From NCBI GenBank assembly GCA_965202785.1, contig OZ241855.1, positions 512,001-576,000 of the forward strand: a stretch of 64,000 nt of DNA, given 5' to 3'. The notes under the pieces are model-generated. The model saw only the letters and a program-made list of their open reading frames with translations. It searched no databases and was not told where the DNA came from. The stretch is from Thermodesulfobacteriota bacterium. GTDB lineage: Bacteria; Desulfobacterota_D; UBA1144; Nemesobacterales; Nemesobacteraceae. Each line of letters opens with the position of its first letter. Positions within the stretch are counted from its first letter, which is position 1. The translations under genes were made by a program, and so were the position numbers. Shown one piece after another: positions 12,240 to 39,979 of the stretch.

Positions 12240-12372
12240 AAAAACTTGGTATTGTCTTTAATTATCCCGTATTGTCAAGAACGGCGGGGACGCTTGAGAA
12301 TGACGGTGGTTTCGGGTAGTTTCACCATTCAGTCAAAGCGTCCCGCAAAAACGGGAATCAAGTGACGGAACC

Positions 12373-22615: not shown

Positions 22616-24322
22616 ATGCCAAGAAAAAAACCTAAGGACCTAATGCATCCCGTCACCTACAAGCGCGAGAACGGGAAATTCGACGTCAACTGGTATCTCA
22701 AGGAAGACCGCTCGAACTGGGTGCTTCCCAAGGTGCTTCGCGAACAGGCGAAGAAACTGGGCAAAAAGCCCTTCCTTCAGTTCGGCTATAAAAAGCCCCT
22801 TAGTTTCTACCAGACGAACCGTCTCGCCAACCGCGTGGCAAACGCCCTTTGCGGCCTCGGGGTTGAGAAGACAAAGAAGGTCGCCGTCTACATGCCTAAC
22901 TCCGATGACTACGTAATAACCTGGTTTGGAATCCTCAAGATGGGAGCCGTGATGGTGCCCATAAACACGGCCTACAAGATGGATTTCCTTGAATACATAA
23001 TCGACAGCTCGGACGCCGAGGTGCTTTTTATAGCGGAAGAGTACCTGGACCGGATGCCCCCCATAGCGAAGAATCTCTCAAAGCTTCGCCACGTCATAGT
23101 CTGGACAAGGAGCGGGGACAGGAAGTTCAAAAAACACGGATACAATTTCCCAAAGATGATCTCCTACTCAGAATTCATAAGCTCGGGCTCGGGCAGGGAG
23201 CCGGACGTCGAGGTCACGTTCATGGACTACGCAAGGCTCATGTACACCTCTGGCACCACGGGCCGCTCAAAAGGGGTCATGAGACCTTGCGCCGCCGATT
23301 ACAGCAGCGCGAGGAACTACGCCGAGATAATGGATGTCGGTCCTGAGGACGTGTGCTTCACGTGCCTTCCGCTTTTCCATTCAAACGCCATGGTGATGAC
23401 CGTCTACCCGGCACTGATAAAAGGAGCGAAAACCGTAGTGGAGGAAAAATACAGCTCAAGCCGCTTCTGGAAATGGATGGTCGACCACGGGGTGACGAAG
23501 TTCAACACCGTGGGAACCATGTCGTATTTTCTCTGGAACACCCCTCCCGTGCCGGAGGAGGGACAGCATAAGATAAAGCTCGTTCTCGGCTCGCCCGCCC
23601 CCCACGACATGATAGAGGAGTTCATGGAGCGCTTCGGGATAAAGTTCATGGAAGGCTACGGCCTGACGGAAATAGGCCAGTGCACCTGGATGAGGCCTGG
23701 AGAGCCTTTCAGGGTGGGGTCCTGCGGAAAGGAAGCCCCAAACTACGAGATAAAGGTCGCCAACCCGGAGACGGACGAGGAGGTGCCGAGGGGGGACATA
23801 GGGGAAATCATAGTGCGCCCCAGGATACCGAACGTGATGCTTCACTACTATCACAAGATGCCCGAGAAGACCGTCGAGGATTTCAGAAATTTCTGGTTCC
23901 ACACGGGCGACGCGGGAAGAATGGACAAAGACGGCTACATATACTTTGTCGACAGGGTGAAGGACTACATAAGAAGAAGGGGCGAGAACATAAGCTCCTT
24001 CGAGGTAGAGAAAATCGTCAACTCCCACCCTGATGTCGAGGAATCGGCCGCGATAGGAATAAAGTCAGAAGCCGGGAAATACGCGGAAGACGAGCTTATG
24101 GTACTAGTGATTCCAAAGGAAGGAAAGGAGGTAGATCCCCCGGAACTAATGGATTACCTTCAGCCCAGAATGCCTTATTTCATGATCCCGAGATTCATAA
24201 GATTCGTAGATTCCTTCCCGAAGACCGGAACGCAGAGAACCCAGAAGAACAAGCTACGCGAACAGGGAGTGACTAAAGACACTTGGGACATGGTGGAAGC
24301 CGGCTACAAGCTGAAGAGGTAG
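22616..24322 (+). CDS. ATP-dependent acyl-CoA ligase (CaiC-like)
   Basis: MYTSGTTGRSKG, EGYGLTE, WFHTGD, DRVKDYIRRRGENISSFEVE, PKTGTQR. Confidence 0.88.
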   Translation: MPRKKPKDLMHPVTYKRENGKFDVNWYLKEDRSNWVLPKVLREQAKKLGKKPFLQFGYKKPLSFYQTNRLANRVANALCGLGVEKTKKVAVYMPNSDDYVITWFGILKMGAVMVPINTAYKMDFLEYIIDSSDAEVLFIAEEYLDRMPPIAKNLSKLRHVIVWTRSGDRKFKKHGYNFPKMISYSEFISSGSGREPDVEVTFMDYARLMYTSGTTGRSKGVMRPCAADYSSARNYAEIMDVGPEDVCFTCLPLFHSNAMVMTVYPALIKGAKTVVEEKYSSSRFWKWMVDHGVTKFNTVGTMSYFLWNTPPVPEEGQHKIKLVLGSPAPHDMIEEFMERFGIKFMEGYGLTEIGQCTWMRPGEPFRVGSCGKEAPNYEIKVANPETDEEVPRGDIGEIIVRPRIPNVMLHYYHKMPEKTVEDFRNFWFHTGDAGRMDKDGYIYFVDRVKDYIRRRGENISSFEVEKIVNSHPDVEESAAIGIKSEAGKYAEDELMVLVIPKEGKEVDPPELMDYLQPRMPYFMIPRFIRFVDSFPKTGTQRTQKNKLREQGVTKDTWDMVEAGYKLKR

Positions 24323-24430
24323 AAGGCTGTATCTTGAAAGGAAGTGTCCGGTTCCTTGCACTTTTTATTCCGTGATTGCAAGAAAACCATTCGTAGCCAT
24401 ATTATTTACAGACATCAACTAACCAAAAAA

Positions 24431-25621
24431 TTATGCGATAGATTTTTCAAAATTAGAGAATTCTGATTCGTAGGTTCGTGCTGCAGAGACTATCCTGCCA
24501 ACCGCATATTCCGCTTCTTCTTGTGTTGTATACCGTCCAATAGAAATTCGTATGGAACTTTCGGAATCGTTAGTGTTAAGACCTATAGCCCGCAGAACAT
24601 GAGAAGGTTCCAGAATTCCACTCGTACAAGCAGAACCTGTTGAAATAGCAACTTCAGGCTGTAAATTTCCTATCAGTGATTTAGCATCAATTCCAGGCAG
24701 AACAACATTGATGTTTCCCGGATGTCTTAGTTTAAAAGAACCATTCAGTTTGCAATTTGGAAGTCCTTTCTTCAATTTTTTCCACATAAAGTCTCTTAGA
24801 GATAAAATATGCTCTTCCTCAGTTTTTCTATTTTCCTTAAGCTCTTTGACGGCTGCCGCAAACCCCGCTACCAGATTAGTTGGTATGGTACCGGATCGAT
24901 ATCCTCCTTGTTGTCCACCTCCCTGAAATAATGCTACCGGTTCCACCTCAATAAATTGGCTTATATAAAGAGCTCCTATTCCCTTCGGCCCATACATTTT
25001 ATGGCTTGATAGGCTTAACAAATCTATCCCGTCTTCTAATACATCAATTCCTCTGTAAGTTGCTTGAGCAGCATCAACATGAAAAATTGCTCCTGCGTTA
25101 TGACACAGTTGCGATATTTCCCTGATCGGCTGATAACTTCCTATCTCATTATTGACCGCCATAACTGAAACAAGTAGCGTTTCCCTATCAATCACTTTTT
25201 GTATATGTTCAATATTCACTAAGCCGTCATTTTCTACTTCAGCTTTAACAACTGAATAACCAAAATTCTCTTCAAGAAATTTAGCGGCACCTAAAATACA
25301 CTTATGTTCAATTTGTGAGACAATTATTTTTTTTCTAGTCCCACTTGCATATCCCGATAGCCCTATTCCAATAACAGCTAAGTTGTTTGCTTCTGTGGCA
25401 CCGGAAGTAAAAACAATTTCATTTTCAAGTGCGCCTATAAAATCAGCTACCTCTCGTGCTGCATTCTCAACTATTTCGGCAGATCTCCAACCGAAAGCAT
25501 GTTCGGAAGAATGAGGATTAGCGAAACCGGTTTCTTCCGCACGCTTCATAGCTTCAAATGCCTTTTTACTAAGAGGAGTTGATGCCTGATAATCTAGATA
25601 TACGGTTAGTTTTTCAGCCAC
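24431..25621 (-). CDS. sspA: Cysteine desulfurase, SspA/DndA-type sulfur donor for DNA phosphorothioation
   Basis: YLDYQASTP, FTSGATEANN, FHVDAAQ, SSHKMYGPKGIG (PLP Lys), STGSACTS (catalytic Cys); divergent from sspBCD. Confidence 0.88.
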   Translation of the reverse strand: MAEKLTVYLDYQASTPLSKKAFEAMKRAEETGFANPHSSEHAFGWRSAEIVENAAREVADFIGALENEIVFTSGATEANNLAVIGIGLSGYASGTRKKIIVSQIEHKCILGAAKFLEENFGYSVVKAEVENDGLVNIEHIQKVIDRETLLVSVMAVNNEIGSYQPIREISQLCHNAGAIFHVDAAQATYRGIDVLEDGIDLLSLSSHKMYGPKGIGALYISQFIEVEPVALFQGGGQQGGYRSGTIPTNLVAGFAAAVKELKENRKTEEEHILSLRDFMWKKLKKGLPNCKLNGSFKLRHPGNINVVLPGIDAKSLIGNLQPEVAISTGSACTSGILEPSHVLRAIGLNTNDSESSIRISIGRYTTQEEAEYAVGRIVSAARTYESEFSNFEKSIA

Positions 25622-25670
25622 TTGACCCTCAATTTTTATTGGTACTCATTATTCTAGAGAATTTCTGATT

Positions 25671-25746
25671 CTGGACAACTTGTCCAGTAAGAAAATTTGA
25701 CCTGCTTAATTAAAAATGGCATCTTTCTGGATAAAACATCCAGAAA
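25671..25746. promoter_or_regulatory. Divergent promoter region with two CTGGA-N7-TCCAG palindromes flanking TTGACC-N17-CATCTT
   Basis: CTGGACAACTTGTCCAG (25671-25687) and TTTCTGGATAAAACATCCAGAAA (25724-25746); -35 at 25697-25702, -10 at 25720-25725. Confidence 0.55.
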
Positions 25747-25756
25747 ATACATTTTT

Positions 25757-26692
25757 ATGCCCTCCACACAAATAGAATTGTCAAATATCAAGCCGATTTT
25801 TTCCGGTCACGAAACGTTTCCATTAAGATATGGATGGCTGAAAAAGGTTTATGACTCAGTATCCCGTGATATAGAATCGGAAGAAAGTACGCGCGATATT
25901 TTTAACAGAGATGAAGCAATAGCTATATTCGGTGTTGGTAAAAACATGGTTGCCTCAATGCGTCATTGGGCAACATGGACTGGCATTCTCAATACTGAAG
26001 GCAAAACCTCGTCTTATGCTAATATGATCCTAGGTAATAACGGATTAGACCCTTGGTTAGAATCCCCTATAAGCCTTTGGATTTTACATTGGCAGCTTAC
26101 TAGTAAGCCTCGGCTCTTGACCTATTTCTGGTTCTTTAATTTATTTAATGGAACAACTTTTGACAAAGAACAAATACAGAAAGCACTGCTTTCGTTATGC
26201 GAAGATTGTTCCCTTAAGATTCCATCCGCAATGACTCTCAAGAGAGATGTTGATTGCTTTATCCGCACTTATGTAAGTAAACCAAGCAAAACAGGAAGAA
26301 TTTCAGAAGATTCATTGGAATCCCCCCTAGCCGAATTAAACCTAATAACACATGTTAACAGGCGAGATGTGTTTCAATCCCGTAGAGGCACAAAATCAAG
26401 TCTCACGGAAGGCGTATTCTTGTTGGTTCTGTGGGATTTCTGGAATCGCAATTGGCGAAACCAAACGACGTTGTCATTAGAAGCTTCGGTTTACGATCCT
26501 TACTCTCCCGGACGTATTTTTCTGATGGATGAAACTGCCATTCTTGAAAAGGCCTACAAGTTAGCGTCTTTAAATGTTGGCATTGAATGGTCAGAAAGCT
26601 CAGGTATGAGACAATTTCAAAGAAACGTTCCATTGAAAAAGATCAGAAAATCCGCAATGCGCTTAATTAAAGATGAATATGCGGTAATGTGA
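25757..26692 (+). CDS. sspB: DUF4007-family protein, SspB-type DNA nickase
   Basis: FSGHETFPLRYGWLKK, FGVGKNMVASMRHW, DPWLE...LWILHWQL, TLKRDVDCFIRTY, SPLAELNL. ATG 25757 is preferred over the ORF-track TTG 25697, which is the -35 box. Confidence 0.88.
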   Translation: MPSTQIELSNIKPIFSGHETFPLRYGWLKKVYDSVSRDIESEESTRDIFNRDEAIAIFGVGKNMVASMRHWATWTGILNTEGKTSSYANMILGNNGLDPWLESPISLWILHWQLTSKPRLLTYFWFFNLFNGTTFDKEQIQKALLSLCEDCSLKIPSAMTLKRDVDCFIRTYVSKPSKTGRISEDSLESPLAELNLITHVNRRDVFQSRRGTKSSLTEGVFLLVLWDFWNRNWRNQTTLSLEASVYDPYSPGRIFLMDETAILEKAYKLASLNVGIEWSESSGMRQFQRNVPLKKIRKSAMRLIKDEYAVM

Positions 26693-29600
26693 AGAAGATG
26701 TTGAATGATGTGGTAGAAATAAATGAGCATTTCAAAAGATCGGTCAATATAAAGAGCGATCTTTCGAATAAGGAACTACTTGAAGGCTACATCTGCCCTA
26801 AATCTTCTGAAGAAGCCCTAATGGGGCTTGTAAAACACATTAAAGGGACTGGGCAGTCTTCATTTACATGGACAGGGCCCTACGGTTCTGGCAAATCAAG
26901 CCTCGTTCTTTTGCTTTCTTCCATAATTTCCCGAGATAACTCATTACGAGAAATCGCATATTCCCATCTTTCTGAAGAAGCCCGTCAACATATTTGCGGC
27001 TTCTTTGAACAAAGAGATTGGGAAATTCTTCCAGTGATCGGCGAACCTGCCAGTCCACTAAAAACTATCGGCCATTCCATGGCTATGAATGGATTCTGCA
27101 AGACGCCTCCTGACGATAATCAAACGCTTATTTCAATCATCGAAAATACCGCAGATAAAAAAAACGGTGTTACCATTTTTATTGATGAAATGGGGAAATT
27201 TTTAGAGAGTTTCTCTAATGGTCAACCTGCCACTGATATCTATCTATTCCAACAGCTAGCGGAACTAGCAAATTCCAGTGACGGTAGAATTATCCTAATT
27301 GGTATACTTCACCAATCATTCAATGAATATGCGCGCAATCTTTCACGGATTACACGTGATGAATGGACAAAAATACAAGGCCGTTTTGTTGACTATCGTA
27401 TTAATACGGTCGGCGAAGAACAGCTTGAATTAATTTCTAAAGCTATTGTTTCCAAAAGAAAGCCAAAACGCCTTACTGTCGAATCGAAAGAGACTGCCGC
27501 CGTAATTAAAAAGAACCGTCCCATTAATGAAAAATCTTTTTCGCAAACTTTAAATGCATGTTGGCCTTTGCATCCAGTCGTCGCCACGTTGTTAGGTCCA
27601 ATTTCTAAGCGTCGCTTTGGCCAGAACCAACGTAGTATTTTTTCCTTTCTGAATTCAGCCGAACTTGGTGGATTCAAAGAATTTCTAAATTCTACAAAGA
27701 CTAAAAGAACTTCCTATTACTACCCAGATTATTATTGGAACTACATACAGATCAATCTGGAATCGTCAATTATTGCATCATCGGATGCTAAACTGTGGGC
27801 TCTAGCAAACGATTCCCTGGCTAGGTGCGAAGCATCTGGTGGGAGTGAAGAACATTTACGCTTGTTAAAAACTATAGCTGTTATTGATATTTTTAAAGGG
27901 CATTCCGGTCTTGCAGCTTCTCGGGAATTACTCAAAACATGTGGTTTCAAAAAGGACTTTCCCGCTTTACTTAAAGACCTAAAAAAATGGTCACTAGTGC
28001 GATTCAAAAAATACAATGGATTCTTTTCTATTTTTGAAGGGAGTGATTTTGATTTAGAAGCAGCTATTGATGAGGCCCTAAAGAATGTAGATTACTTCAG
28101 TTTTGCAAAACTAGCGGAAATAGCACCGTTTAAGCCTTTTGTTGCAAAAAGGCATTACCACACCACAGGTGCATTACGATGGATGAATGTTAACATTCTG
28201 CCAGTTGACGAAGTAGAGGACCTTCCAGCAAAAACAAGAGAAGTATCTGGAGTCTTTGGTGGTTTTTTCATTATCGTACCAACAAACATAGATGAATACG
28301 AACATATTTCTAAACAAATTAAAAGCCTCTCAAGTCACCTATCTAAGAACAAAAACTATGTGGTAGTGTGTGGTATCTCCAAAGAATACGAAACTATATT
28401 ATCTTACAGTAAAGAATTGCTTGCGCTGGAATGGATAGAGAAAAACCGCAATGAAATGCTGGACGGCGACTCGGTCGCCCGCAGGGAGGTAGAATCTAGA
28501 AAGACCTTGATAAAATCATTGCTGGAAGAATTGCTCTCGAAACAAATCAGCACTATTTCTTGGATTAAAAATGGAGAAAATAAGGGAGTTCTTTCCCATC
28601 GGGAAATCATAGGTCTTGTTTCCGATATTGCTGACCAAGTTTTTAAAAACACCCCCATTGTAAAAAGCGAGATGTTAAACCGTGATCGACCATCTAGCAA
28701 TGCGAATGCTGCTTTAAATGCATTGTTACGCAGCTTGATCCTCAATAATGGTGAAAAAAGGCTGGGTATTAATGGCTATCCACCAGAAGGTGGTCTTTTT
28801 AAGGCTTTACTGGAAGACTCTGGTCTGTACAAGAAAATTAATGGTACTTGGCTGTTACAAGAACCGGAAGCCGGGCATAGGTTTAGATTTAATCTACTAT
28901 GGCAGGAAACTGACAGAATTCTATCCAGCAACAAAAACTCTGTTCCTATAAAGAGCATCTACAGTGCATGGCAAACAGCTCCATATGGTCTAAAATCAGG
29001 GCTGTTACCATTTTTTGCGACAGTTTATTTAATGACACGACATAATAAGATAGCTCTTTACCTAAATGAAACATACAGGCCATCTTTCGATGATCTATCC
29101 CTCGATTACCTGATAAAAACGCCTCAAACTGTTTCCTTGCGCTGGGTTGATTATGACGAGTTGGATCTTGAAGTCCTAAGAGCGGTCAGAAAATCCATTA
29201 ATGCAATAGAACTAAACAACTTTTTAATTGATAAGAACGCCTCCGCATTCGATGTAGCACGGTCATTGGTTTCGCTAGTAGATAGCCTGAATCCTTGGGT
29301 ACATAGAACGCGGCGACTTTCAAGAGAAACCATCCGCTTCAGGGAAATAGTTAAGTCGGCGCATGATCCTAACAAACTTCTGTTTGATGATCTACCAAGT
29401 TTGCTAGATACTGATTCAGCAAAGATTCAAGATACTAACGAATTACAGAATGTGGCGGAAAAGATTACCAATTCTCTTGTCGAGTTGACGGAGGCGTACC
29501 CTTATCTCCTGAAGGAATTCGGATTGTTACTCTCAGAAGAATTACAGGTTGGTATGATAACATCGGAAAACATCAAACGTCTCAGAGAAAGGGCGCAATC

Positions 29601-30084
29601 TATTCGAGGAGCTACAGGTGATTTTCGTATTGATGCATTAGCGACTCGTCTTAGCTCTTTTGACGGAACACTAGATGATATAGCAGGTATAGCAAGCCTT
29701 GCTGCTAATAAGCCTATAAAAGACTGGATTGATCTGGATGTTGACCGTGCAAAACAGGAAATGGTTTCTCTCTGTTACGGTTTTAAAAAAGCTGAATTAC
29801 TAGTCCGTGTTCAAGGGAGAAAGACAAATAGACATTCTTTAGCACTGATAACGGCCCTGTCGGGTAACGAAGAAATTTACGATTTGGAATTTGATCTGCT
29901 TGATGACAAAAAAGAAACTATTTTCACACTGAAAGAACTAATCCAGCAGGAAATTCTTGCTAAACCCGTGGATGCAGAAATTGTAATTGCTGTCATTGTG
30001 GAACTAGCTGCCGAGTATATTAAGGAAATTAAAGAACGACCAAATAGACCACTAGCAAATAAAAAAATAGCTTCAAATGTCTGA
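26689..30084 (+). CDS. sspC: Large P-loop ATPase, SspC-type
   Basis: Walker A TGPYGSGKSS, Walker B IFIDEMGKFLE, EWTKIQGRF, WPLHP, QNQRSIFSFL; GTGA overlap with the sspB stop. Confidence 0.85.
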   Translation: MKKMLNDVVEINEHFKRSVNIKSDLSNKELLEGYICPKSSEEALMGLVKHIKGTGQSSFTWTGPYGSGKSSLVLLLSSIISRDNSLREIAYSHLSEEARQHICGFFEQRDWEILPVIGEPASPLKTIGHSMAMNGFCKTPPDDNQTLISIIENTADKKNGVTIFIDEMGKFLESFSNGQPATDIYLFQQLAELANSSDGRIILIGILHQSFNEYARNLSRITRDEWTKIQGRFVDYRINTVGEEQLELISKAIVSKRKPKRLTVESKETAAVIKKNRPINEKSFSQTLNACWPLHPVVATLLGPISKRRFGQNQRSIFSFLNSAELGGFKEFLNSTKTKRTSYYYPDYYWNYIQINLESSIIASSDAKLWALANDSLARCEASGGSEEHLRLLKTIAVIDIFKGHSGLAASRELLKTCGFKKDFPALLKDLKKWSLVRFKKYNGFFSIFEGSDFDLEAAIDEALKNVDYFSFAKLAEIAPFKPFVAKRHYHTTGALRWMNVNILPVDEVEDLPAKTREVSGVFGGFFIIVPTNIDEYEHISKQIKSLSSHLSKNKNYVVVCGISKEYETILSYSKELLALEWIEKNRNEMLDGDSVARREVESRKTLIKSLLEELLSKQISTISWIKNGENKGVLSHREIIGLVSDIADQVFKNTPIVKSEMLNRDRPSSNANAALNALLRSLILNNGEKRLGINGYPPEGGLFKALLEDSGLYKKINGTWLLQEPEAGHRFRFNLLWQETDRILSSNKNSVPIKSIYSAWQTAPYGLKSGLLPFFATVYLMTRHNKIALYLNETYRPSFDDLSLDYLIKTPQTVSLRWVDYDELDLEVLRAVRKSINAIELNNFLIDKNASAFDVARSLVSLVDSLNPWVHRTRRLSRETIRFREIVKSAHDPNKLLFDDLPSLLDTDSAKIQDTNELQNVAEKITNSLVELTEAYPYLLKEFGLLLSEELQVGMITSENIKRLRERAQSIRGATGDFRIDALATRLSSFDGTLDDIAGIASLAANKPIKDWIDLDVDRAKQEMVSLCYGFKKAELLVRVQGRKTNRHSLALITALSGNEEIYDLEFDLLDDKKETIFTLKELIQQEILAKPVDAEIVIAVIVELAAEYIKEIKERPNRPLANKKIASNV

Positions 30085-30910
30085 TAAAGAGAAACACGTT
30101 TTAGGACTCTCTGGAGGAAGGGACAGTGCTGCGCTCGCTGTTTATATGAGAGACAATTACCCAGAGTTGCCTATTGATTATTTTTTCACAGATACAGGAA
30201 AAGAGCTTCCTGAAGTATATGAATATCTAAGCCGTCTGGAAGGTTATCTTGGCAAACAAATTTTAAGAATAAACCCGGATAGAGATTTTGATTTCTGGCT
30301 CATGCAAAATAAAAACTTCCTGCCTTCGCCTAAGGCAAGATGGTGTACTATCCAAATGAAACTACGTCCATTTGAACAATGGATAAAACCATTGCTTGAG
30401 GATGGCTACAAAATCTACTCCTATGTTGCAATCCGGTCAGATGAAGAATATCGAGAGGGTTATCAATCTCGCCATAATAACCTAATTGTGCGGTTACCAT
30501 TAAAAGATGTTGGTATAGACAAATCTGGCGTCGTCGCTATTCTAGAACATTCGGGACTAGGCATGCCAAAATATTATGAGTGGCGTTCCCGCAGTGGCTG
30601 TACTTTTTGTTTTTTCCAGAGAAAAATTGAATGGGTAAATCTCATGGAAAAACACCCTGAAGCTTTCAAAGAAGCAAAAGCATATGAGAAAACTGCTGTA
30701 GAACAAGGTTCTCCATTTACTTGGTCAGAGCAAGAATCCCTTGAAGAATTATCTCGACCAGAAAGAGTAGCACAGATCAAAAAAGACTACGAGAAGCGCT
30801 TAGAACGTCTGAAAAAGCGACGGTTAAAAAACCCATTGCGGGAAAATGACCCGGTGGATTTTGACGAACTGTATGGCAAATCAAAAGTATGCCTAGCCTG
30901 CCATAAGTGA
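30077..30910 (+). CDS. sspD: PAPS-reductase-family ATP pyrophosphatase, SspD-type
   Basis: PP-loop SGGRDS, FTDTGKE, RWCT, SRSGCTFCFFQ, C-terminal CLACHK; overlaps the sspC stop. Confidence 0.88.
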   Translation: MSDKEKHVLGLSGGRDSAALAVYMRDNYPELPIDYFFTDTGKELPEVYEYLSRLEGYLGKQILRINPDRDFDFWLMQNKNFLPSPKARWCTIQMKLRPFEQWIKPLLEDGYKIYSYVAIRSDEEYREGYQSRHNNLIVRLPLKDVGIDKSGVVAILEHSGLGMPKYYEWRSRSGCTFCFFQRKIEWVNLMEKHPEAFKEAKAYEKTAVEQGSPFTWSEQESLEELSRPERVAQIKKDYEKRLERLKKRRLKNPLRENDPVDFDELYGKSKVCLACHK

Positions 30911-31052
30911 TTTCTTACGTTGAAAGCAGTAACCGCTGTAGTATTTCTACAAATACTATATAGCCCCCAATTGCATGTGATTCACTTATGCAATAATGGT
31001 ATCCCTGTTTTCTCTTAGGTAAGCGAGAAAACTTAAAAATTTGTTTAGATGT

Positions 31053-33473
31053 TCATACCTCCAGTGCCGTAACTAGTTCCTGCATGTCAAAGTTCAGCAG
31101 AAACTGAGCATAAAATGTCCCAAACAAATCAGATATGTACTCTGGTATAGATTTCTGCTCATCTTCGCCTTGCTGTAAACTGTATTTACGGTTTTTTGTG
31201 ATGGTATAAAGAACCAGGGTGTGAAAATATACAGCCGAGACATAGCGCTTTTCGGCAATGTCGATGGCACTTTCTCCAGTAAGTTTTGATCGATGTGATA
31301 AAAGCACCTTGCTGTCCATATTGATATAAACAGTCTTTAGTGAATCTTCTTCTTCAAGAAGTTGCACGATAATATCATGGTTCATCTCAATACCATTCTG
31401 CTCTAATTTATCCCATGTTATTTTACCACGGTCTTGATCTCGGTAGACCATAACAAATTCTGGCAACCCTAGCCGAGTGTCTGGCTCTTCTCCTTTCTTT
31501 GGTTTCTTGGGAGTTTTTTCCGGTTCTGAAATTTTGACTAAGAAAATCTGCTCAAGTTTTCCTTCAGGACTTGATAACGACGCACGAACTGTAACCGCAT
31601 CACCAACTTTCACTTCATCTGTGGGATTTAATAAAACACGAATTGTTCCGTTGCGCGGGCTAGACTTGACAACATCAAATATAGTATCAAGAGCTTTGGG
31701 TTCGCCAGGGGAATCTCCACCTCCTGTATTGTTTGGAGAAAAGTTCATTAGTCCAATTTGGAGATCTCCTGGATCACTTATACGATCGAAATATTGATCC
31801 TCTACATCGGTTGAAAATCTGATTGTTTTTTTGCCACCAAGAGGGATTTGCACCATAGGAGGCCCTTCCTCGTCCCGCAGTTTCACATCAATATTAAAGT
31901 AGCTTGGATACCTATTAGGATTAAACGTATTCTTTTTATCCGATTCCTTATCCCGAGTTTTGCGTCCCTTGTCTCTTTTTTGACCTTCTCGTCGATCGTT
32001 CAACTTGAAGTTCTGGCTTAAGAGTTGGGCTAATTCATTGCGGATTGGGAAATTACGTGCGATGTTACGCATAAGATCCTCAGCATCATTGCCTTCGACA
32101 GTGATAGAGGCTTTCCGGTTTTTGTGAATATCTTTTAGGCGACTTCTTGACAAGATTTCAGCTAATCTGTGGCGAAGTTTTCTAGATTTATCACCTTCTT
32201 TTAGGCGGTCACGGGATGCCATAAACAATTCATTGCGGAATTCCATATTAATCTCAGTACAATCGACGTGAACTAGCAGATAGTTTTTCAAAAGAGGAAA
32301 TTTAAGAGACCTAGTAATAAACTCGGATGTGTAGTGCCCATGCACCTGCCCATTGATCGAAAATAGAATTGACATGTTATTCTTGAAGAATTCTCTGCGA
32401 AGAGTCTCTCGGGTTTCTTTTACCGATCGCTGATCCACACGTGGCTTAAACACATAACAAGTTACTCCGACCTGCCCAATTTCGTGATCGGTTATATTTT
32501 CTGAGAAAAAATCTTCTACGTACCGACTCTCTTCTTCAAGGCGCCGTTTCAATCCATAAAGCTCACGTTGAGGATTACGATCGTCTGGATAACGCTTTTC
32601 ATTGTCAATAGTAAATACAGGTAGGGCGGGTTGAAACAGGTATTCATTAATGCTTTGGTTTAGATCTCGTGAGATAACCGACCTAGACCCTGAAGGTAGG
32701 TCATAGGAGTAAAGCTTTATCACTGTTCCGGTAGTAAAACGACGATTATAAAGTCCAAGATCCAGGTCTTCGCAGGTAAAAGAAGGAATTTTGCCGTCTA
32801 TAATTAGATATTCGTACCAGGTGGACTTTTTTCTCCTCTCTTCTTCGGCAGTGAGCGGGTGCCGACGAACCAAGGTGAACCCGAATGCCTGACCATTATC
32901 ATACCGTTTGGAAGCAATAAGTTGATAACGTTGCTGACCACAGAATACAATTGCTCCAGTACCTCCCATGTTATATTTGCCTTGTACAAAGTGAATATCA
33001 TTTTTGTTCCCACGCAAAAGGGACAAAAACGAGGTCTCAAAATCCTCAGGTGCTTGGCCCTCGCCGTCGTCGTAGATTATGAGTGATGTCTCCATACGTG
33101 GCCCATCAGCGAGAATTTGTAGATTTTCCGCTTGCTTTAGGCGCTCCCTCCTTAAGTCCCAGTTCTTATGTTTAGGAAAAAATTGTTGTAAAGCTTCGTC
33201 AATTGATCTTGGCGCTTGGTCCGATTTAGGGTCGATTCCCTGCTCGTAGCATCTGCGCATCAAAATAGCATCAATGCCGTTGGTAATCTTCTCAATTAAT
33301 GCAGGAATCGGTGAAGCTTGCTGGTTTTCAATCACGCCGAAATTGCTCTCGTTTCTTCCATAGGGACGCCAGTTTGATGGATTTCGAATTAACTTGTACT
33401 TATCCAGTATATCTTCAACTCTTTCCTCGACTGGTGCGTTGTAAAGGTCAAAAAAAAGTCGCTTGATATCCAC
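31053..33473 (-). CDS. Uncharacterised GHKL-type (MORC/Hsp90/MutL-like) ATPase
   Basis: GHKL boxes ALIEKITNGIDA (N box), IIYDDGEGQ (G1), QGKYNMGGTG (G2), TTGTVIKL (G3), then a long unassigned C-terminal region. GTG 33473 follows a GGGAGAG SD. Confidence 0.75.
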   Translation of the reverse strand: MDIKRLFFDLYNAPVEERVEDILDKYKLIRNPSNWRPYGRNESNFGVIENQQASPIPALIEKITNGIDAILMRRCYEQGIDPKSDQAPRSIDEALQQFFPKHKNWDLRRERLKQAENLQILADGPRMETSLIIYDDGEGQAPEDFETSFLSLLRGNKNDIHFVQGKYNMGGTGAIVFCGQQRYQLIASKRYDNGQAFGFTLVRRHPLTAEEERRKKSTWYEYLIIDGKIPSFTCEDLDLGLYNRRFTTGTVIKLYSYDLPSGSRSVISRDLNQSINEYLFQPALPVFTIDNEKRYPDDRNPQRELYGLKRRLEEESRYVEDFFSENITDHEIGQVGVTCYVFKPRVDQRSVKETRETLRREFFKNNMSILFSINGQVHGHYTSEFITRSLKFPLLKNYLLVHVDCTEINMEFRNELFMASRDRLKEGDKSRKLRHRLAEILSRSRLKDIHKNRKASITVEGNDAEDLMRNIARNFPIRNELAQLLSQNFKLNDRREGQKRDKGRKTRDKESDKKNTFNPNRYPSYFNIDVKLRDEEGPPMVQIPLGGKKTIRFSTDVEDQYFDRISDPGDLQIGLMNFSPNNTGGGDSPGEPKALDTIFDVVKSSPRNGTIRVLLNPTDEVKVGDAVTVRASLSSPEGKLEQIFLVKISEPEKTPKKPKKGEEPDTRLGLPEFVMVYRDQDRGKITWDKLEQNGIEMNHDIIVQLLEEEDSLKTVYINMDSKVLLSHRSKLTGESAIDIAEKRYVSAVYFHTLVLYTITKNRKYSLQQGEDEQKSIPEYISDLFGTFYAQFLLNFDMQELVTALEV

Positions 33474-33704
33474 CTGAGACTCTCCCTTTATTATATAATC
33501 ATCTTCCAAGCAGTGAGCCCATCTACTACTATATATAGGGCGATTAATTTAACCGACCGACAATACCTGACCAAGAAGACTTGGTTTCGCTATAACTACG
33601 ATACACAACCTCATTTAGAAAGAACTAGATAAAACAACCCTAGGAAGTGTATTGAGTCATACTTAAAGATTTAGTTTATACTTTGAATGGGAAAAAATGG
33701 GGAA

Positions 33705-33718
33705 AGGCTTTTCAGCCT
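33705..33718 (-). terminator. Short hairpin just after the sspE stop
   Basis: Minus strand AGGCT-GAAA-AGCCT followed by TTCCCCATTTTTT. Confidence 0.3.
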
Positions 33719-33726
33719 AACTATAA

Positions 33727-36036
33727 TCATTTGTATGATAACCAAGGAGCAATTTCATCCCACACAAGCCCCAGGATATTATCAGCTCTACGCTTTATAA
33801 ATTGCTTGTCCCATTTTCTAACTTTGTTCAACGGAGAAAGCATATAAAGACTTTCGTTTCTTAATTTTTCAGAAATTGCTTTAAAAGACCCCCCATGCTT
33901 CCTTGCCTTAACTTTAGATAGTAGATTTTTTCTTTCGTCTTGTGTTTCAGCAGCTAGTGCAGCGTAAAACAGTTTTTTATTCGCCCATGAATTATTTCCT
34001 ATCATTGAATTTTCCCTTTGTGGGAGGAGGACAAGATTTCCGATTGTATCGCGGGTATAAGGATTTTGATAAATTTTTGGATCCCATCCATCACCACTGC
34101 CAGATATAGATTGAGGAGCAACGTGTTCAACTGTACCATATTGTTGACCACACCACTTTTCAAAACTAAGGAGATTGATTTCATCGGCGGGAATTATGCC
34201 TTCGCGGCTAATAAGGCCAGCTTTGTTTGGTCTAGCATTATGTGAAGCGGCAAAAAGTAGAAAACGACACAAAGGCCTCGAGCGCTTTGCTAAGTCCACT
34301 TCACGCGCTTGATTGATCCAAGTTTTCTTGTCTTTCACTTCAAGTCGAATTTCCAGATGTTCTCGTAAATTTGCCTTTAATTCTTCAACACTAGGGAGAG
34401 AATTAGTGTGATTTAAACCTACACAAAATGGTTTTTTCTTATCTTGGGAATCTGCATTAATAATTTTTCTAAAGTCACCATCAATTCCTCCAGTGCCTCC
34501 AGTTACCGATCTCCTTAAAACCAGAAAAGCTGTTACAGCTTTTACCGAATCAACAAAGGAATCGGTGTCGTTTTCTCGATATTCCACCCAGTATCTCGCC
34601 AAAATAGGTAGAGCCATACTAGTTTTCATATCCAATATGAATCTAAAGCAAAGCTTTAATATGTCATCTCTCTTAATATCTCCGGTACTGAGGTTAGGTA
34701 TGCTTTCTATGTTCCAATGCCTATACCGGAACTCTGCTATTTCTGCTAACGATTCTACGATTTTGCGTTTGGTTTGTTTTTGCTTACTTTTATCAAATGC
34801 ATTTCGCAAATATGCGCGCTGAGAAGCAAGATCACGCGAAAGTTTGTAGCCATCTAGATACAATGCAAATGTAATAAGTAGATCTTTCGTAGCATTCTGT
34901 CGCTTTTCTGTTTCCTTGTATACAGCATTTAAATATTTTTCAATCCTATCGAAATATTGTTCAGATTCAGAATTATGATAACGGGCAATTTTGTCTTCAA
35001 AGCTAATTACGCGCGGTTTAAAGGTTTCAAGAGCAGTAAGTGGTTCACCTGTTGTATTAAGTGCATCAAAAATATCAAAGGCGGAATCCTCGTCCTTTGT
35101 CTCAACCCGCGTAAGGATAACGCACCTCATCAAGTAATGAGAAAATAGCAAAAGCCTGATTAGACCACTAGAAGCAGAATTTTGGGAAATATGGCTAATT
35201 GCACGATTTTGGTCTTCTTCTTCTCCAAGCACTGTAAGCTTTTCAAATAGATTACGTAACCCCGCTCTTTCAAAACTTTCATGTTGAACTTGCTCATATT
35301 CTAGTTCTTCTTTTGTAGTTTCACTTGGTGTTTTTTTGTCTTCATATATTCTGCTGACTTGCTCCTTTATGTATTTATAATTTTGAAAATAAAGCCTTTC
35401 CTCCGTATCACTTTCCTTTTTTGGCTTGGGGTCAAAAGAAGCCATTCCTCCTTTATAAAAATTGGCGAAATTCATGAGGAAGTTTGCCGTTATAGAAAAG
35501 TATTCTGCCTCTTTTGGGGTAGGAGCTCGGTTGTCTTCTCCGCGAACTATGCGTGGAAATAGCGATGTTGTAACGCGTCCAGGGAGTTGGCCAATTACAC
35601 ATGAAAATAATGTTTCACAGACATGATTAACTTCCTTTTCTATCCACATGGATACTTCTGGTTTGAGATGGCTCCTGTCTTCGCAGTGAAGAAGCAGTTC
35701 TTGAATCAAGCTACAACAAATGAGTATAAGAGTTGTTAACCTTTGTTGTCCATCAACAATAGAAAGTGATGTTCCATCAAATGAATTCTCAGATTGCTCG
35801 GAGACGAGGATCATAGTTGCTAAGAAAGTGTATTTATATTCATCTTTGTTTTTGGATTCAGAAAGATAATAAAATCCGTTCAGGCAATCTTCTAAAAGCC
35901 TTTTAATCTTTTCTTGACTCCAATTGTATGTACGCTGATATTCGGGCACGCGAAAACCTACTCTTGCGCTGTGGCTGTTCATAGTTTCCCAAAAATTATC
36001 AGTTTTTGCCGGAAAAAGTTCTCTTATTGGTCGCAT
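33727..36036 (-). CDS. sspE: SspE-like effector: DUF262 (DGQQR) NTPase plus DUF1524 HNH nuclease
   Basis: VPEYQRTYNW, IVDGQQRLTTL, FDIFDALNTTGEPLT, C-terminal VEHVAPQS...IGNLVLLPQRENSMIGN; 769 aa, next to sspABCD. Confidence 0.85.
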   Translation of the reverse strand: MRPIRELFPAKTDNFWETMNSHSARVGFRVPEYQRTYNWSQEKIKRLLEDCLNGFYYLSESKNKDEYKYTFLATMILVSEQSENSFDGTSLSIVDGQQRLTTLILICCSLIQELLLHCEDRSHLKPEVSMWIEKEVNHVCETLFSCVIGQLPGRVTTSLFPRIVRGEDNRAPTPKEAEYFSITANFLMNFANFYKGGMASFDPKPKKESDTEERLYFQNYKYIKEQVSRIYEDKKTPSETTKEELEYEQVQHESFERAGLRNLFEKLTVLGEEEDQNRAISHISQNSASSGLIRLLLFSHYLMRCVILTRVETKDEDSAFDIFDALNTTGEPLTALETFKPRVISFEDKIARYHNSESEQYFDRIEKYLNAVYKETEKRQNATKDLLITFALYLDGYKLSRDLASQRAYLRNAFDKSKQKQTKRKIVESLAEIAEFRYRHWNIESIPNLSTGDIKRDDILKLCFRFILDMKTSMALPILARYWVEYRENDTDSFVDSVKAVTAFLVLRRSVTGGTGGIDGDFRKIINADSQDKKKPFCVGLNHTNSLPSVEELKANLREHLEIRLEVKDKKTWINQAREVDLAKRSRPLCRFLLFAASHNARPNKAGLISREGIIPADEINLLSFEKWCGQQYGTVEHVAPQSISGSGDGWDPKIYQNPYTRDTIGNLVLLPQRENSMIGNNSWANKKLFYAALAAETQDERKNLLSKVKARKHGGSFKAISEKLRNESLYMLSPLNKVRKWDKQFIKRRADNILGLVWDEIAPWLSYK

Positions 36037-36264
36037 TAATTAACTTCCTTCTAATGTTGATTTTTGTTCCTTGAAAACTTCCAGAGAAGTTTTCACTGGT
36101 TTGCTATGTACGACTCTCATGGCTGTTAATAAGATGCAGGATATCGAGCACCTGATCATCAGTATCTTTCACGTTATATTTGGTTTTATCTCGTTCTTCA
36201 ATATTCATCGGTAAAAATATCTTTCCGTATCATATACATGATTAGAAAAAAGTTTAAAAAAACT

Positions 36265-37809
36265 TTATGCATTCTCTTCAGCAAAACCAATCTGAAAGCC
36301 TTTCCCTTCTTCCCCCCGCGCAACCGTCTCGTAATCGCACCCAATAGCCTTAGCAAGAGCCCCCAGGCGGCGACCGACGGTTTCCGGGTGAGGAATCTGG
36401 TCAGGCATATGCAAGGTAAGCTTCTCTCTGGTCCTCTCAAGCCTGGTGCTCTCAAGAATCCGCGTCACTCCCCCGGAAACTGTGTAGGCAAGGCGAAGTG
36501 CAAGTCCCGTGACCCTGGCTTCCTCAATATCGTCTCCGGAAAGAAAATCTGAAACTTCCCAGCGTCGGACCAGGTTTCCAATCGCCGCGTGCCTTGAGGC
36601 GACCGAAAAAGCCACCCTTACCCTTTCAGGGTGCGTAATTCCCACAAAGGGCATCCGCAGTATCCTCAAAAACACCTGCTCCGCCCGGTACTCGGGATGC
36701 TCGGAAATTCCTATGTCCGAGAGATGACATGCGACAAGCCTGAGTCTTGAGTCTCCAACATATTCATCTGGAATCGCCGCCTCCATCCATCTGCAGAAAG
36801 TCTTGCCGTCCTCAACGGATCTTCCCATCTTAAGTGCGATCTCCTCGCACATGACAACCAGAGGGTCGAGAGAACGCTGCTCCGGGGAAAGATCGTCGTA
36901 TATGCATCCCTCCCGAAGCCCGTACGTGCAGAACGTAAGGTTGTCAACGTCCGTTTTTTTCAGAAGACTCTTCATAAGCGCGGCGGCGTAAGGAGCGGAC
37001 TCCACCCTGTTTCGCCCCAGGATCCAGAGATCCTGAAGCGAACCCGAAGACATCTCGGATATCTCCCGGGCCATCTCAACCGCCCTGAATCTGGAAAGAC
37101 TGTAGCCGTGGACTATGCGAAGCGGGTAATCCTCAGACTCCATGTGTTTTTTAGCAAGAGCTCTCCACGAACCCCCGACGGCGTAGAAGGTCTTCTTTTT
37201 CGCGTTCTCAAGCCAGGGAAGTTCGTCAAGCAGGGGAGCGATCAGTCTCTTGCGGGCCTTCGCGGGACTTAGACCGCTTTCAAGAAGCGGTATCGTGCCA
37301 AGCGGCAACGTGGCGTGGTTCCCTATTTCCCCCTCGCAAACCTCTATCAGCTCAAGGCTTCCGCCGCCTATGTCTCCCACTATGCCGTCAGCTTCAGGGA
37401 TAGCGCACAGGGTTCCGAGCGCGGAAAGCGTTGCCTCCTCCATGCCGGAGAGCACCCGAAGCGAAATCCCGCATTGCTGCTCAACCGCCTCTTTGAAGTC
37501 GGGACCGTTTACGGCGTTTCTTACCGCAGCGGTGGCAACTGCCTTTATTCCGGAAACCCTCATTGAGCGCGCGATATCGACAAAGCGGCTTACGGTCCGC
37601 AGGGCGAGATCCATGCTCTTGGGCGACATCATGCCCCGAGAGTCCATTCCACGCCCCAGGCCGCAGGCGACTTTCTCATCAAGTATCGGAAGCGGGGCAC
37701 GCCTCGGACCCTTGTAAATCACAAGACGGATGGAGTTCGACCCTACGTCTATTACGGCCGCAGTTCCGATCTTGCCGAAGGGCGCGTCGGAGGAAGAAAT
37801 TTCTGTCAT
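36265..37809 (-). CDS. ppx: Exopolyphosphatase Ppx/GppA
   Basis: VIDVGSNSIRLV, ATAAVRNAVNG, DIGGGSLEL, GLREG; downstream of ppk1. Confidence 0.93.
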   Translation of the reverse strand: MTEISSSDAPFGKIGTAAVIDVGSNSIRLVIYKGPRRAPLPILDEKVACGLGRGMDSRGMMSPKSMDLALRTVSRFVDIARSMRVSGIKAVATAAVRNAVNGPDFKEAVEQQCGISLRVLSGMEEATLSALGTLCAIPEADGIVGDIGGGSLELIEVCEGEIGNHATLPLGTIPLLESGLSPAKARKRLIAPLLDELPWLENAKKKTFYAVGGSWRALAKKHMESEDYPLRIVHGYSLSRFRAVEMAREISEMSSGSLQDLWILGRNRVESAPYAAALMKSLLKKTDVDNLTFCTYGLREGCIYDDLSPEQRSLDPLVVMCEEIALKMGRSVEDGKTFCRWMEAAIPDEYVGDSRLRLVACHLSDIGISEHPEYRAEQVFLRILRMPFVGITHPERVRVAFSVASRHAAIGNLVRRWEVSDFLSGDDIEEARVTGLALRLAYTVSGGVTRILESTRLERTREKLTLHMPDQIPHPETVGRRLGALAKAIGCDYETVARGEEGKGFQIGFAEENA

Positions 37810-37813
37810 AGAT

Positions 37814-39979
37814 TTATTCCTGCACAAACTCAGCCGGCATTAGCGGCCGGGATTTGGCAAGCGCCTTGCCTCTTCCTGAAAGACTGGGGTTGGTCATGAA
37901 GTACTTGTGAGCCGAGAATCTGTCCGTATCGCTTTTAAGCTTTTGGAAAGAGCCGTCCGGCTGCATCTCCCAGCTGCTCTCAACGTCGTTTAAGTTAGCC
38001 ACCATCACCTGCTCGACAAGCTGTTTTTTCACAGTGGCGTTTTCGATCGGAACAAGCGACTCCACCCTGCGGTCAAGATTTCGGGGCATCCAGTCGGCAG
38101 ACGAGATGAAAACCTTGCAGGCATTGGAGGGAAGCCCCTCCCCGGCACCGAAGCAGATGACCCTGCTGTGCTCAAGGAAACGTCCCACGATGCTCTTTAC
38201 CCTGATGTTCTCAGAAAGCCCCGGCACTCCGGGCCTCAGGCAGCATATTCCCCGAACGAAAAGCTCGATCCGCACCCCCGCGCAGCTTGCCGCGTAAAGC
38301 GCGTCTATTATCTTGCTGTCCACAAGGGAATTCATCTTGGCCCATATGACCGCGGGGCGTCCGGCCTTCGCATGATTAACCTCGTCCCTTATGAGCTCAA
38401 GCACCTTCGGGCGCATCGTGACGGGAGAGAAGAATATCCTCTCCATCTTCTTCGGAGTGGCGTAGCCGGTCATGTAGTTAAAAAGCTTGGCGGCGTCGCG
38501 TCCCAGCGCCTCGTCGGCGGTGAAGTAGCTGAGATCCGTGTATATCTTTGCGTTTACCGGGTGATAGTTGCCGGTTCCGAAGTGGGCGTAGGTGCGGATG
38601 TCGGAACCTTCCCTCCTTACCACAAGAGACACCTTGGCGTGGGTTTTAAGATCGATGAATCCGAACACGACCTGAACTCCCGCGTCCTCAAGGTCGTGCG
38701 CCCAGCGGATGTTGGCCTCCTCATCGAAACGGGCCTTAAGCTCCACCATGGCAGTTACGGATTTCCCGGCTTCGGCGGCCTCTATGAGCCTTTTCACTAT
38801 CGGAGAGTCTTCCGAGGTGCGGTAAAGCGTCTGCTTGATCGCGACGACCGCCGGATCGGCGGCGGCCTGCTTCAGGAACTCAACGACGACATCGAAACTC
38901 TCGTAGGGGTGGTGAACGACGAAGTCTTTCTGCTGTATGGCGGCGATCACGTCACCTCCGAACTCCCTCACCCTCTCGGGGTAGCGGATGTTCATGCGCT
39001 TGTAAAGAAGGTCGCTTCGCTCATCGAGTATTACCTGTTTCACGCTCTCAAGCCCGAGCATCCCCTTGATCCTGAAGAAATGCGCGTTGCGGGCCTCAAG
39101 CTTCTCCATTATGAAATCAACGATCGTATCCGGCATGTCCGCGTTTACGTCAACCCTGATCACAGACCCTCCCCTTCGAATGGACTTAAGTGCCGTTTCG
39201 AACGTCTCGACCAGGTCTTCCGCGTCCTCGTCTATCTCCAGAAGGCTGTCGCGGGTGACTTCGAAGATTCCGCTGTCCTCCACCTCAAAACCCGGAAAAA
39301 GGGATTTCATGTTGTGCTCGATAACCTTCTCGATCGGGACAAGCTGGATTTTCTTTTCTCCCGGAACCCTTATGAAGCGCTCCACCTGGGAAGGCAACAG
39401 TATGAGACCCTTCATGCGCTTTCCGTCCTCGGCGCGGCTTAGCTGCACGGCGCACACAAGGCTTCCGCTCTGTATGAAGGGAAACGGATGCGCCGGGTCT
39501 ATGGCAAGCGGGGTAAGCACCGGAAAAAGCTTTTTCGAGAACCACTCGGAAAGCCACCTGGCGCCCGAGCGGTCGAGTTTCTCGGGAGTCACAATCTTGA
39601 TCCCCGCCTTCTTGCAGAGAGAAAACAGTTCCTTTTCGCACTCGTACTGGTTGTCAAGCAGAAAGCGGACCTTCTCCCCTATGGCTTCTAGTTGCTGAGA
39701 AGGCGTAAGGCCGTCTTTGCTGCGGTCGGTAACTCCTTCCATAACCTGTCCCGCGAGACCCGCCACCCTGACCATGTAGAACTCGTCAAGGTTGCTCGCA
39801 GAGATCGAGAGAAAGCGCACCCTCTCAAGCAGCGGAACCTTTTTGTTTGCCGCCGTCTCAAGAACCCGCAGGTTAAAGTCAAGCCAGGAAAGCTCCCTGT
39901 TAAGATACTTCTCCTTCCTGGAAAAACCGGCAGGACCCCTCTTGCTGGCGATGTCCGTTATAGAAGAAGCCATCTGCAA
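37814..39979 (-). CDS. ppk1: Polyphosphate kinase 1
   Basis: NRELSWLDFN, SNLDEFYMVRV, DPAHPFPF, HHPYESF, KTHAK, GTGNY, GRFLEHSR, SADWMPRNLDRRVE. Confidence 0.97.
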   Translation of the reverse strand: MQMASSITDIASKRGPAGFSRKEKYLNRELSWLDFNLRVLETAANKKVPLLERVRFLSISASNLDEFYMVRVAGLAGQVMEGVTDRSKDGLTPSQQLEAIGEKVRFLLDNQYECEKELFSLCKKAGIKIVTPEKLDRSGARWLSEWFSKKLFPVLTPLAIDPAHPFPFIQSGSLVCAVQLSRAEDGKRMKGLILLPSQVERFIRVPGEKKIQLVPIEKVIEHNMKSLFPGFEVEDSGIFEVTRDSLLEIDEDAEDLVETFETALKSIRRGGSVIRVDVNADMPDTIVDFIMEKLEARNAHFFRIKGMLGLESVKQVILDERSDLLYKRMNIRYPERVREFGGDVIAAIQQKDFVVHHPYESFDVVVEFLKQAAADPAVVAIKQTLYRTSEDSPIVKRLIEAAEAGKSVTAMVELKARFDEEANIRWAHDLEDAGVQVVFGFIDLKTHAKVSLVVRREGSDIRTYAHFGTGNYHPVNAKIYTDLSYFTADEALGRDAAKLFNYMTGYATPKKMERIFFSPVTMRPKVLELIRDEVNHAKAGRPAVIWAKMNSLVDSKIIDALYAASCAGVRIELFVRGICCLRPGVPGLSENIRVKSIVGRFLEHSRVICFGAGEGLPSNACKVFISSADWMPRNLDRRVESLVPIENATVKKQLVEQVMVANLNDVESSWEMQPDGSFQKLKSDTDRFSAHKYFMTNPSLSGRGKALAKSRPLMPAEFVQE

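Follow-up and report, generated by a model that had tools for sequence, protein, structure and literature searches.

An Ssp anti-phage island carrying a candidate family-level GHKL ATPase partner of SspBCD in rare combination with SspE

The SspABCD-SspE system of DNA phosphorothioation was reportedly described by Xiong et al. in 2020. Its effector SspE, a phosphorothioate (PT)-sensing GTPase and nickase, works without a GHKL partner in the published systems, as far as the available text of the two reports goes (PMC9646914, PMC8092258). According to the accessible parts of the second report, only about 15% of 2,678 sspBCD clusters have a known restriction partner, either SspE (7.4%) or SspFGH (7.3%), each being a minority partner (PMC8092258). 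We analysed a stretch of 64,000 nucleotides from a Thermodesulfobacteriota bacterium (contig OZ241855.1, positions 512,001 to 576,000; hereafter the window), which contains an island of ssp genes. As in the SspABCD-SspE system, all five proteins are present at full length and SspE has the DGQQR motif. The locus differs in having a sixth gene, of the GHKL family, alongside them, a divergently oriented sspA, and a GHKL-sspE pair that faces sspD in convergent orientation. A sequence-only reading had proposed this locus as a candidate Ssp variant; its observation was confirmed and its interpretation partly supported, namely as an Ssp island whose GHKL partner represents an undescribed family and occurs here, as it rarely does, together with SspE.

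The GHKL family was found to be tightly linked to sspBCD. Enrichment beside these genes, a check put forward with the sequence-only reading, was examined in 80 loci from species genomes (of 553 matches) and 80 from metagenomes, with SspA-E located by tblastn using the window's proteins as queries. sspBCD lay within 10 kb in 62 of the 69 loci with full flanks, defined as at least 9 kb on both sides (43/49 from genomes and 19/20 from metagenomes). As background, an even sample of 400 genomes from another phylum contained 15 with sspD, about 4%. Five of the remaining full-flank loci carry a partial sspBCD at the edge of the stretch and two carry none (L022 and L124), and a strong sspD is found elsewhere on the same chromosome as L022. 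Among the 31 genome loci with shorter flanks, all three genes were present in 15, part of them in 3 and none in 13; most shorter-flank loci without ssp genes end within a few kb of the GHKL gene. In the genomes of three loci (L011, L027 and L030) sspD was not found. In the other direction, the family was absent from all 15 of the sspD-bearing background genomes, and in the window's own phylum, where sspD occurs in 12 of 120 genomes, three have a full-length family member. The association runs very largely one way: an Ssp module is needed by the GHKL gene, but most Ssp modules lack that gene. On this distribution, the family appears to be a dedicated minority partner of SspBCD, large and unnamed.

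The phylogenetic trees point in the same direction. Of 51 splits, 11-12 are common to the GHKL tree and the trees of SspB, SspC and SspD; the shuffled null averages 0.15 and does not exceed 2. Host phylogeny contributes to this congruence, in which kin are not independent. The SspB, SspC and SspD trees share 29-34 splits among themselves, and the distance correlations agree. This is the pattern expected for a module that would travel with SspBCD and sometimes be exchanged.

The sixth gene is located at 31053-33473 on the minus strand, convergent with sspD and downstream of sspE, and is single-copy in this 1.64-Mb genome. Its open reading frame (31053-33509, minus strand) encodes 818 residues. 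The most likely start is the GTG at 33473 behind a AAAGGGAGAG ribosome-binding site, which gives 806 residues, as had been estimated, and a product identical to the database protein P0002. The family comprises 3072 matches of about 810 residues, with at least 60% identity among the 120 matches listed and at least 51% across phyla. Wherever any source names it, including six RefSeq plasmid records, the name is "hypothetical". No homologue was found in phage records.

The assignment of the sixth protein to the GHKL ATPases stood with respect to its fold and its invariant Bergerat motifs, and fell short with respect to Pfam, where HATPase_c_3 scored 18 bits (E=0.003) and the gathering threshold is 25 bits; this profile does not reach sequences as divergent as those of the family. 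Two other Pfam matches, HAS-barrel (E 0.078) and DUF2811 (E ~0.08), were at chance level. The Bergerat fold is supported by fold comparison and by motifs I-IV (ExxxNxxD, DxGxG, GxxGxG and T/GT), whose residues are invariant in the alignment: E61, N65 and D68; D135-x-G-x-G139; G165...G173; and T248-G249. At the level of modelled fold and motifs, the sixth protein is thus confirmed as a very divergent GHKL ATPase with intact ATP-site motifs.

Structural alignments span model residues 40-460 (32094-33356, minus strand), including the middle domains of Hsp90 and MORC3, which indicates that an S5-type transducer follows the GHKL ATPase. This module is the most conserved part of the protein (mean column identity 0.78-0.79). 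A helical segment separates it from a basic disordered linker at residues 496-528 (31890-31988, minus strand), in which residues 496-520 have a predicted local distance difference test score (pLDDT) below 50. The linker contains 9-13 lysine and arginine residues per ~40 residues across homologues and is the least conserved of the main segments (0.49). It is followed by an Ig/PapD-like beta-sandwich at residues ~529-655 (31509-31889, minus strand), a generic sandwich in Foldseek and in the wide structure search, and by a terminal alpha/beta and helical domain at residues ~669-806 (31056-31469, minus strand) with no assigned relative. Predicted alone, the C-terminal 280 residues gave a pLDDT of 83.8, with the sandwich first and the alpha/beta-plus-helical domain last.

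In the C-terminal structure searches the Ig-like sandwich filled the lists, so that the last ~150 residues were barely probed. For the terminal domain, the PDB profile search returned nothing significant, and the ESM Atlas gave unnamed clusters only; NUDT15, at E ~1.1 in the PDB profile search, was taken as a chance match. No PDB sequence matched the whole protein at E<=10 or the family profile at E<=1. When the C-terminal region was searched against 1.84 billion representatives, 419 proteins were found at E<=0.001, and in the best 150 of these the domain is nearly confined to the C-terminus of proteins 721-847 residues long, which have the same architecture. Longer fused forms of the family were not found, which is weak evidence. 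We also observed sister GHKL lineages (G026:C1:1329738-1330814, G028:C1:155574-156563 and G347:C1:1042250-1043194), whose proteins of 599-859 residues resemble the family profile (E 1e-51 to 1e-56) in its N-terminal 280-340 residues only and have other C-terminal parts; sspD was not found in these three genomes.

The suggestion that the sixth gene is neither SspE nor a component of SspFGH held against the PADLOC models. The proposed PADLOC check of the island identified SspA-E, and a whole-library scan of the sixth protein at E<=10 against the 2023 version of PADLOC-DB returned no Ssp model, the only match being PDC-M42B (E 5e-4, 18 bits, residues 726-815), which we treated as noise. Four SspF models (560-607 positions) and one SspG model (519 positions) found nothing in this genome; these lengths of 519-607 positions compare with 806 residues for the sixth protein. 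SspH did not appear in the whole-library PADLOC scan, nor FtsK in the fold searches, no SspH model having been searched by accession. In the available text of PMC8092258, SspF is described as a Walker-A protein and the SspH C-terminus as FtsK/SpoIIIE-like, and both descriptions are unlike the sixth protein. Within the open full-text literature, as distinct from subscription journals and supplements, no link between a GHKL or MORC-type protein and Ssp was found. A term look-up found no such link in the accessible text of PMC8092258, PMC2292703, PMC8011034, PMC12914056, PMC10853773, PMC13712998, PMC12137116 and PMC12839542, and two Aravind-lab surveys of PT and BREX systems contain no occurrence of GHKL or MORC in their available parts.

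An sspE-like gene was present in only 3 of the 160 loci (L009, L047 and L146), and SspE is absent anywhere in the genomes of L028 and L046. The family is therefore independent of SspE, and the window locus would be a rare double-armed locus. Given that the sspE-bearing loci are not mutual nearest relatives in any of the four proteins, the combination of GHKL and SspE probably arose more than once; in the midpoint-rooted GHKL tree, the smallest clades uniting these loci contain 13 and 31 of 54 tips. The sequence-only reading had proposed an additional MORC-like arm on an SspE system. What survives of this is a dedicated partner of sspBCD; the role of an SspE appendage does not fit the counts, and neither a MORC-specific operon nor sequence similarity to a MORC-type ATPase was found.

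Gene maps of the 61 loci with both sspC and sspD revealed a recurring layout of sspBCD, a variable cassette and the GHKL gene. A ParB/DUF262-superfamily gene (DndB-like, DUF262-only or SspE) occupies the slot adjoining the GHKL gene in 36 loci, the cassette consists of a paraMORC-HEF_HK gene and a 646-residue gene in 9, and 15 have no recognisable accessory. In the window, the slot beside the GHKL gene is taken by sspE, which is encoded upstream in the same orientation; sspE of L047 is placed between sspD and the GHKL gene. DndB-like genes accompany the GHKL gene in 20 of 80 loci, and the GHKL gene lies within 300 nt of sspD in 8 of 80, on the same strand in 7 of these.

The two-gene cassette, which either separates sspD from the GHKL gene or follows the latter closely, is seen in L001, L007, L010 (8037-9977), L014 (4986-7379), L020, L028, L036, L041 and L071, and also in L169 (5333-9708). 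Its first gene encodes a 797-residue protein with HATPase_c_3, HEF_HK and HATPase_c domains, of the paraMORC type of PMC8011034 and named 'sensor histidine kinase' in RefSeq, and its second a 646-residue protein with no family. L169 (NZ_CP101520.1, 96546-118960) is part of the repABC plasmid pC of a cultured strain, Ensifer adhaerens NER9, and carries sspA, a DUF4007 gene, sspC, sspD, the two-gene cassette and a 51%-identical GHKL gene.

With regard to the island itself, it extends from 24323 to 36264 between an acyl-CoA ligase gene (22616-24322) and ppx (36265-37827), with tatC on the ligase side and ppk1 on the ppx side. Its G+C content between 24 and 36 kb is 0.38-0.43, compared with 0.549 and 0.565 in the adjoining 1-kb windows and ~0.54 in the surroundings. 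Terminal repeats at the borders amount to short imperfect matches, none above chance level. We take it to be a horizontally acquired Ssp anti-phage island. The sequence-only reading was correct as to the positions and strands of the six open reading frames, the divergent sspA and the convergent GHKL and sspE genes, the AT-rich block, the coupled DUF4007/ATPase/PAPS-reductase operon and the identity of the set as SspA-D plus SspE. All five of these proteins lie in one cluster and cover their PADLOC models over nearly the full length, with Pfam agreeing.

The cysteine desulfurase gene sspA (24431-25621, minus strand; PADLOC SspA 5.5e-130, Pfam Aminotran_5 8.3e-76) is divergent from sspB (25697-26692, plus strand; PADLOC SspB 1.2e-93, Pfam DUF4007 1.9e-76). 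As the DUF4007 match begins only at residue 35, the real start of sspB may lie downstream of the TTG. The BrxC-like ATPase gene sspC (26689-30084, plus strand) matches PADLOC SspC with E=0 and 1150 bits over model positions 1-1043 of 1045, and the PAPS-reductase-like gene sspD (30077-30910, plus strand) matches PADLOC SspD at 7.9e-134 over the full model length, as well as Pfam PAPS_reduct. The overlaps of 4 nt between sspB and sspC and of 8 nt between sspC and sspD are consistent with translational coupling. On the other side of the GHKL gene, sspE (33727-36036, minus strand) encodes a DUF262 NTPase with a DUF1524 His-Me nickase (PADLOC SspE 5.5e-258, model positions 2-765 of 766; Pfam GmrSD_N and GmrSD_C). 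Since it aligns end to end with the solved SspE structures 6jiv (1.1e-93) and 20yv (1.8e-96) and keeps the DGQQR motif, SspE is intact and looks functional. A spacer of 253 bp (33474-33726, minus strand) separates sspE from the GHKL gene. Promoter and terminator consensus matches in the island (25 and 11) were not above those in shuffles (28.4 and 9.8) and speak neither for nor against an sspE-GHKL operon. A second gene of the DUF262 type, outside the window (G000:C1:58587-58946, a 624-residue open frame), matches the N-terminal part of the SspE model only (E 1e-12); this is probably a GmrSD-like type IV restriction gene in its own right. The window also has a second patch of lower G+C content (0.45-0.47) beside rplT, infC and thrS, with an open reading frame of 366 residues without Pfam family (7608-8708, plus strand).

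Among 36 genomes of the genus, the junction between the ligase gene and ppx measures only ~40-125 bp in six (G035, G037, G044, G046, G050 and G053), and elsewhere in the genus (genomes G033-G067) it contains 0.4-27 kb of varied cargo. In six other genomes (G040, G043, G048, G051, G060 and G067), sspD lies between the two anchors. G056 has a ligase 99% identical to that of the window, yet carries a different insert of 7.8 kb without sspD. The junction is a recurrent insertion hotspot. The GHKL family and SspE occur together in the genus in G000 only. In G067, sspA-B-C-D-GHKL all run in one direction beside an IS30-type gene, and the proteins are 35-69% identical to those of the window. Other ssp loci of the genus carry different modules. 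G052 (L084, 11130-15024) and G057 (L086, 10319-14763) have sspABCD followed by a superfamily 2 (SF2) helicase, a MORC-type HATPase_c_3 protein that Pfam recognises and a nuclease of the PLD family, apparently a further undescribed Ssp-linked module; their sspC is present as two open reading frames (435+639 and 535+643 residues). After sspABCD, G048 (L085, 2490-9897) has a PLD-SNF2 helicase, an AAA_23 ATPase, an open reading frame of 153 residues and a distant SspE, ~30% identical to that of the window.

The island is not an assembly artefact, since contigs from other studies match it: those of a second study showed zero differences across the GHKL gene, the spacer, sspE and the ppx border, and a ~96%-identical copy from a third study has the order sspC-sspD-GHKL-sspE on one contig of 9222 nt. 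In the RNA-library run X7, contigs match the GHKL gene (31473-32276) and sspE (34136-35982) in part, at 90-95% identity. These are a relative's contigs without strand information, for which DNA carry-over is possible, and they provide a weak hint at expression.

We favour, with somewhat better than even confidence, the explanation that the sixth protein is a restriction- or sensing-side arm parallel to SspE, so that two arms would depend on one modification module. SspA-D would write single-strand PT marks on host DNA, expected at CCA-type sites, and SspE would act as the PT-sensing GTPase/nickase arm. The sixth protein would serve restriction or sensing as a DNA clamp gated by ATP, in the manner of Hsp90, MORC and MutL. 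It would read the PT status made by SspBCD and either stop foreign DNA on its own or license a nuclease to do so, and its basic linker and C-terminal domains would supply contacts to DNA or partners. It would work in parallel with SspE, as in the additive protection reported for SspFGH and SspE. GHKL and transducer modules carry out ATP-gated actions in Hsp90, MutL, MORC and type II topoisomerases, and it is from these that we infer the clamp. The restriction or sensing side is favoured because most SspBCD systems modify without the GHKL gene, because the gene behaves as exchangeable, and because double-armed Ssp systems are documented.

Several observations weigh against this explanation. Its main weakness is that the putative effector role is ascribed to a protein with no recognisable nuclease domain. 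The MutL endonuclease motif, DQHA(X)2E(X)4E, was present in 0 of 30 family sequences, and the HKD, GIY-YIG and Walker A motifs were absent. Loose patterns for PD-(D/E)xK, HNH and DEDD matched all 30 and were uninformative. The C-terminal region offers only a generic Ig-like sandwich and no effector domain, and the last 140 residues have no assignment. With at least 51% identity across phyla, compared with 23-41% for SspC, the family is unusually conserved for a defence effector. Furthermore, linkage alone cannot separate a restriction-side role from a modification-side role. Finally, plasmids of Haladaptatus (L167), an archaeon, and of Pontibacillus (L168), of the Bacillota, carry distant homologues (10001-12270) that align over 93-100% of the length at 26-27% identity, and the PLSDB gene tables, which are incomplete, list no Ssp genes within 10 kb of them. 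The wider superfamily may therefore not be Ssp-bound, and other contexts would exist.

A more general form of the favoured explanation, which we regard as doubtful, would make the family the missing general restriction or sensor engine of a considerable part of the 'orphan' SspBCD systems, that is, a MutL-like, ATP-gated clamp that reads PT marks and licenses a nuclease or toxin in the swappable cassette. Its clients would be DUF262-only, DndB-like, SIR2 or kinase proteins or the paraMORC pair, and SspE in the window locus.

Among the alternatives, the one that survives best, although we consider it unlikely, is that the GHKL protein is an accessory on the modification side, helping or regulating SspBCD in site choice, loading, turnover or PT density. 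Its almost constant position beside sspBCD, in some loci close to sspD and on the same strand, would fit this role, as would the lack of a nuclease domain and a high conservation like that of SspD. The DndB-like neighbours could be read in the same way, as DndB regulates PT in Dnd systems according to the available text of PMC10853773 and PMC12914056. However, most SspBCD systems do without the GHKL gene, which is absent from all 15 sspD-bearing genomes of the neutral sample and from 8 of 10 other same-genus sspD carriers, and PT is made in its absence by the SspBCD modules characterised in Vibrio and E. coli, as the accessible parts of PMC8092258 describe. The GHKL tree is also far less congruent than the SspB, SspC and SspD trees are with each other (11-12 against 29-34 shared splits), as for an exchangeable module.

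Rather improbable is a composite effector, in which the GHKL protein would be a MutL-like matchmaker for a client in the neighbouring cassette slot, here SspE, the two forming one unit instead of parallel arms. The arrangement in the window, with sspE directly upstream on the same strand at 253 bp, the position of sspE in L047, the ParB/DUF262-superfamily gene beside the GHKL gene in 36 of 61 loci and the gene order kept in the 96%-identical copy are all consistent with such a unit, and SspE is called the equivalent of DndB in the available text of PMC10853773. Against this, SspE works without such a partner in the published systems, as far as described in the accessible text of PMC9646914 and PMC8092258; 15 of the 61 loci lack an accessory and 9 have a different cassette; and no co-evolved pair is evident, as the sspE-bearing loci are not nearest relatives.

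It is very unlikely that the family has already been described under another name, for example as SspH, as a newer DefenseFinder or PADLOC system, or in a paper outside the open literature. The 2023 date of PADLOC-DB and the weak PDC-M42B match (E 5e-4, residues 726-815) would leave room for this, but the whole-library scan at E<=10 gave nothing else, SspH is FtsK/SpoIIIE-like at its C-terminus in the available text of PMC8092258, unlike the sixth protein, the open literature holds no GHKL-Ssp link, and RefSeq and others name the family 'hypothetical'. Close to refuted is an unrelated passenger, an independent single-gene defence or housekeeping ATPase sharing the island, since, although the insertion site is a hotspot with varied cargo, the distant homologues lack nearby Ssp genes and two full-flank loci have no ssp genes within 10 kb, sspBCD accompanies the gene in 62 of 69 full-flank loci when only ~4% of genomes have sspD at all, tree congruence is far above the shuffled null, and the genome of L022, one of these two, has sspD elsewhere.

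Given the low share of sspBCD clusters with a known restriction partner, this ATPase, which is conserved across phyla and almost always linked to sspBCD, is a concrete candidate for one of the missing partners. It would also be the first case in which an engine of the GHKL/MORC type is coupled to a mark on the backbone (sulfur) and not on a base. The window locus, in which the family stands beside the well-understood effector SspE, is a good test bed, and Ensifer adhaerens NER9, as a related cultured strain, is a possible experimental model. If SspE were the client of the GHKL protein, the pairing would be directly testable.

Beyond SspABCD-SspE, the locus can be compared with four other groups. 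With the prokaryotic MORC and paraMORC1-5 proteins, ATPases that belong to restriction-modification systems, as described in the available text of PMC2292703 (Iyer, Abhiman and Aravind, 2008), the sixth protein shares a GHKL domain followed by an S5-type transducer. It differs in scoring below the HATPase_c_3 threshold and in having other C-terminal domains, and the island has no SF2 helicase, restriction endonuclease or methylase as in MORC/paraMORC operons. The terms "Dnd", "PAPS" and "phosphorothioate" have no mention in the accessible part of PMC2292703, and the true MORC-type protein that follows sspD in G052 and G057 has no sequence similarity to the sixth protein. From the clamps of Hsp90, MutL and Topo VI-B, the sixth protein differs in having neither the MutL endonuclease motif nor C-terminal similarity. 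VcSduA, a Shedu nuclease with an N-terminal GHKL domain, is similar in that a GHKL ATPase is proposed to control anti-phage activity; as far as the available text of PMC12137116 goes, its GHKL domain is fused to a PD-(D/E)xK nuclease (DUF4263) and no modification partner accompanies it, whereas the family described here has no recognisable nuclease and is tied to SspBCD. In comparison with SspABCD-SspFGH, with or without SspE, the locus and genome contain no SspF or SspG homologue, one 806-residue GHKL protein stands in place of three genes, and neither a Walker A motif nor, in the Pfam and fold searches, an FtsK-like domain was found in this protein. The resemblance to that system, as presented in the accessible text of PMC8092258, is in the organisation: one SspBCD module would serve two different restriction-side modules at once, and each partner accompanies only a minority of sspBCD systems.

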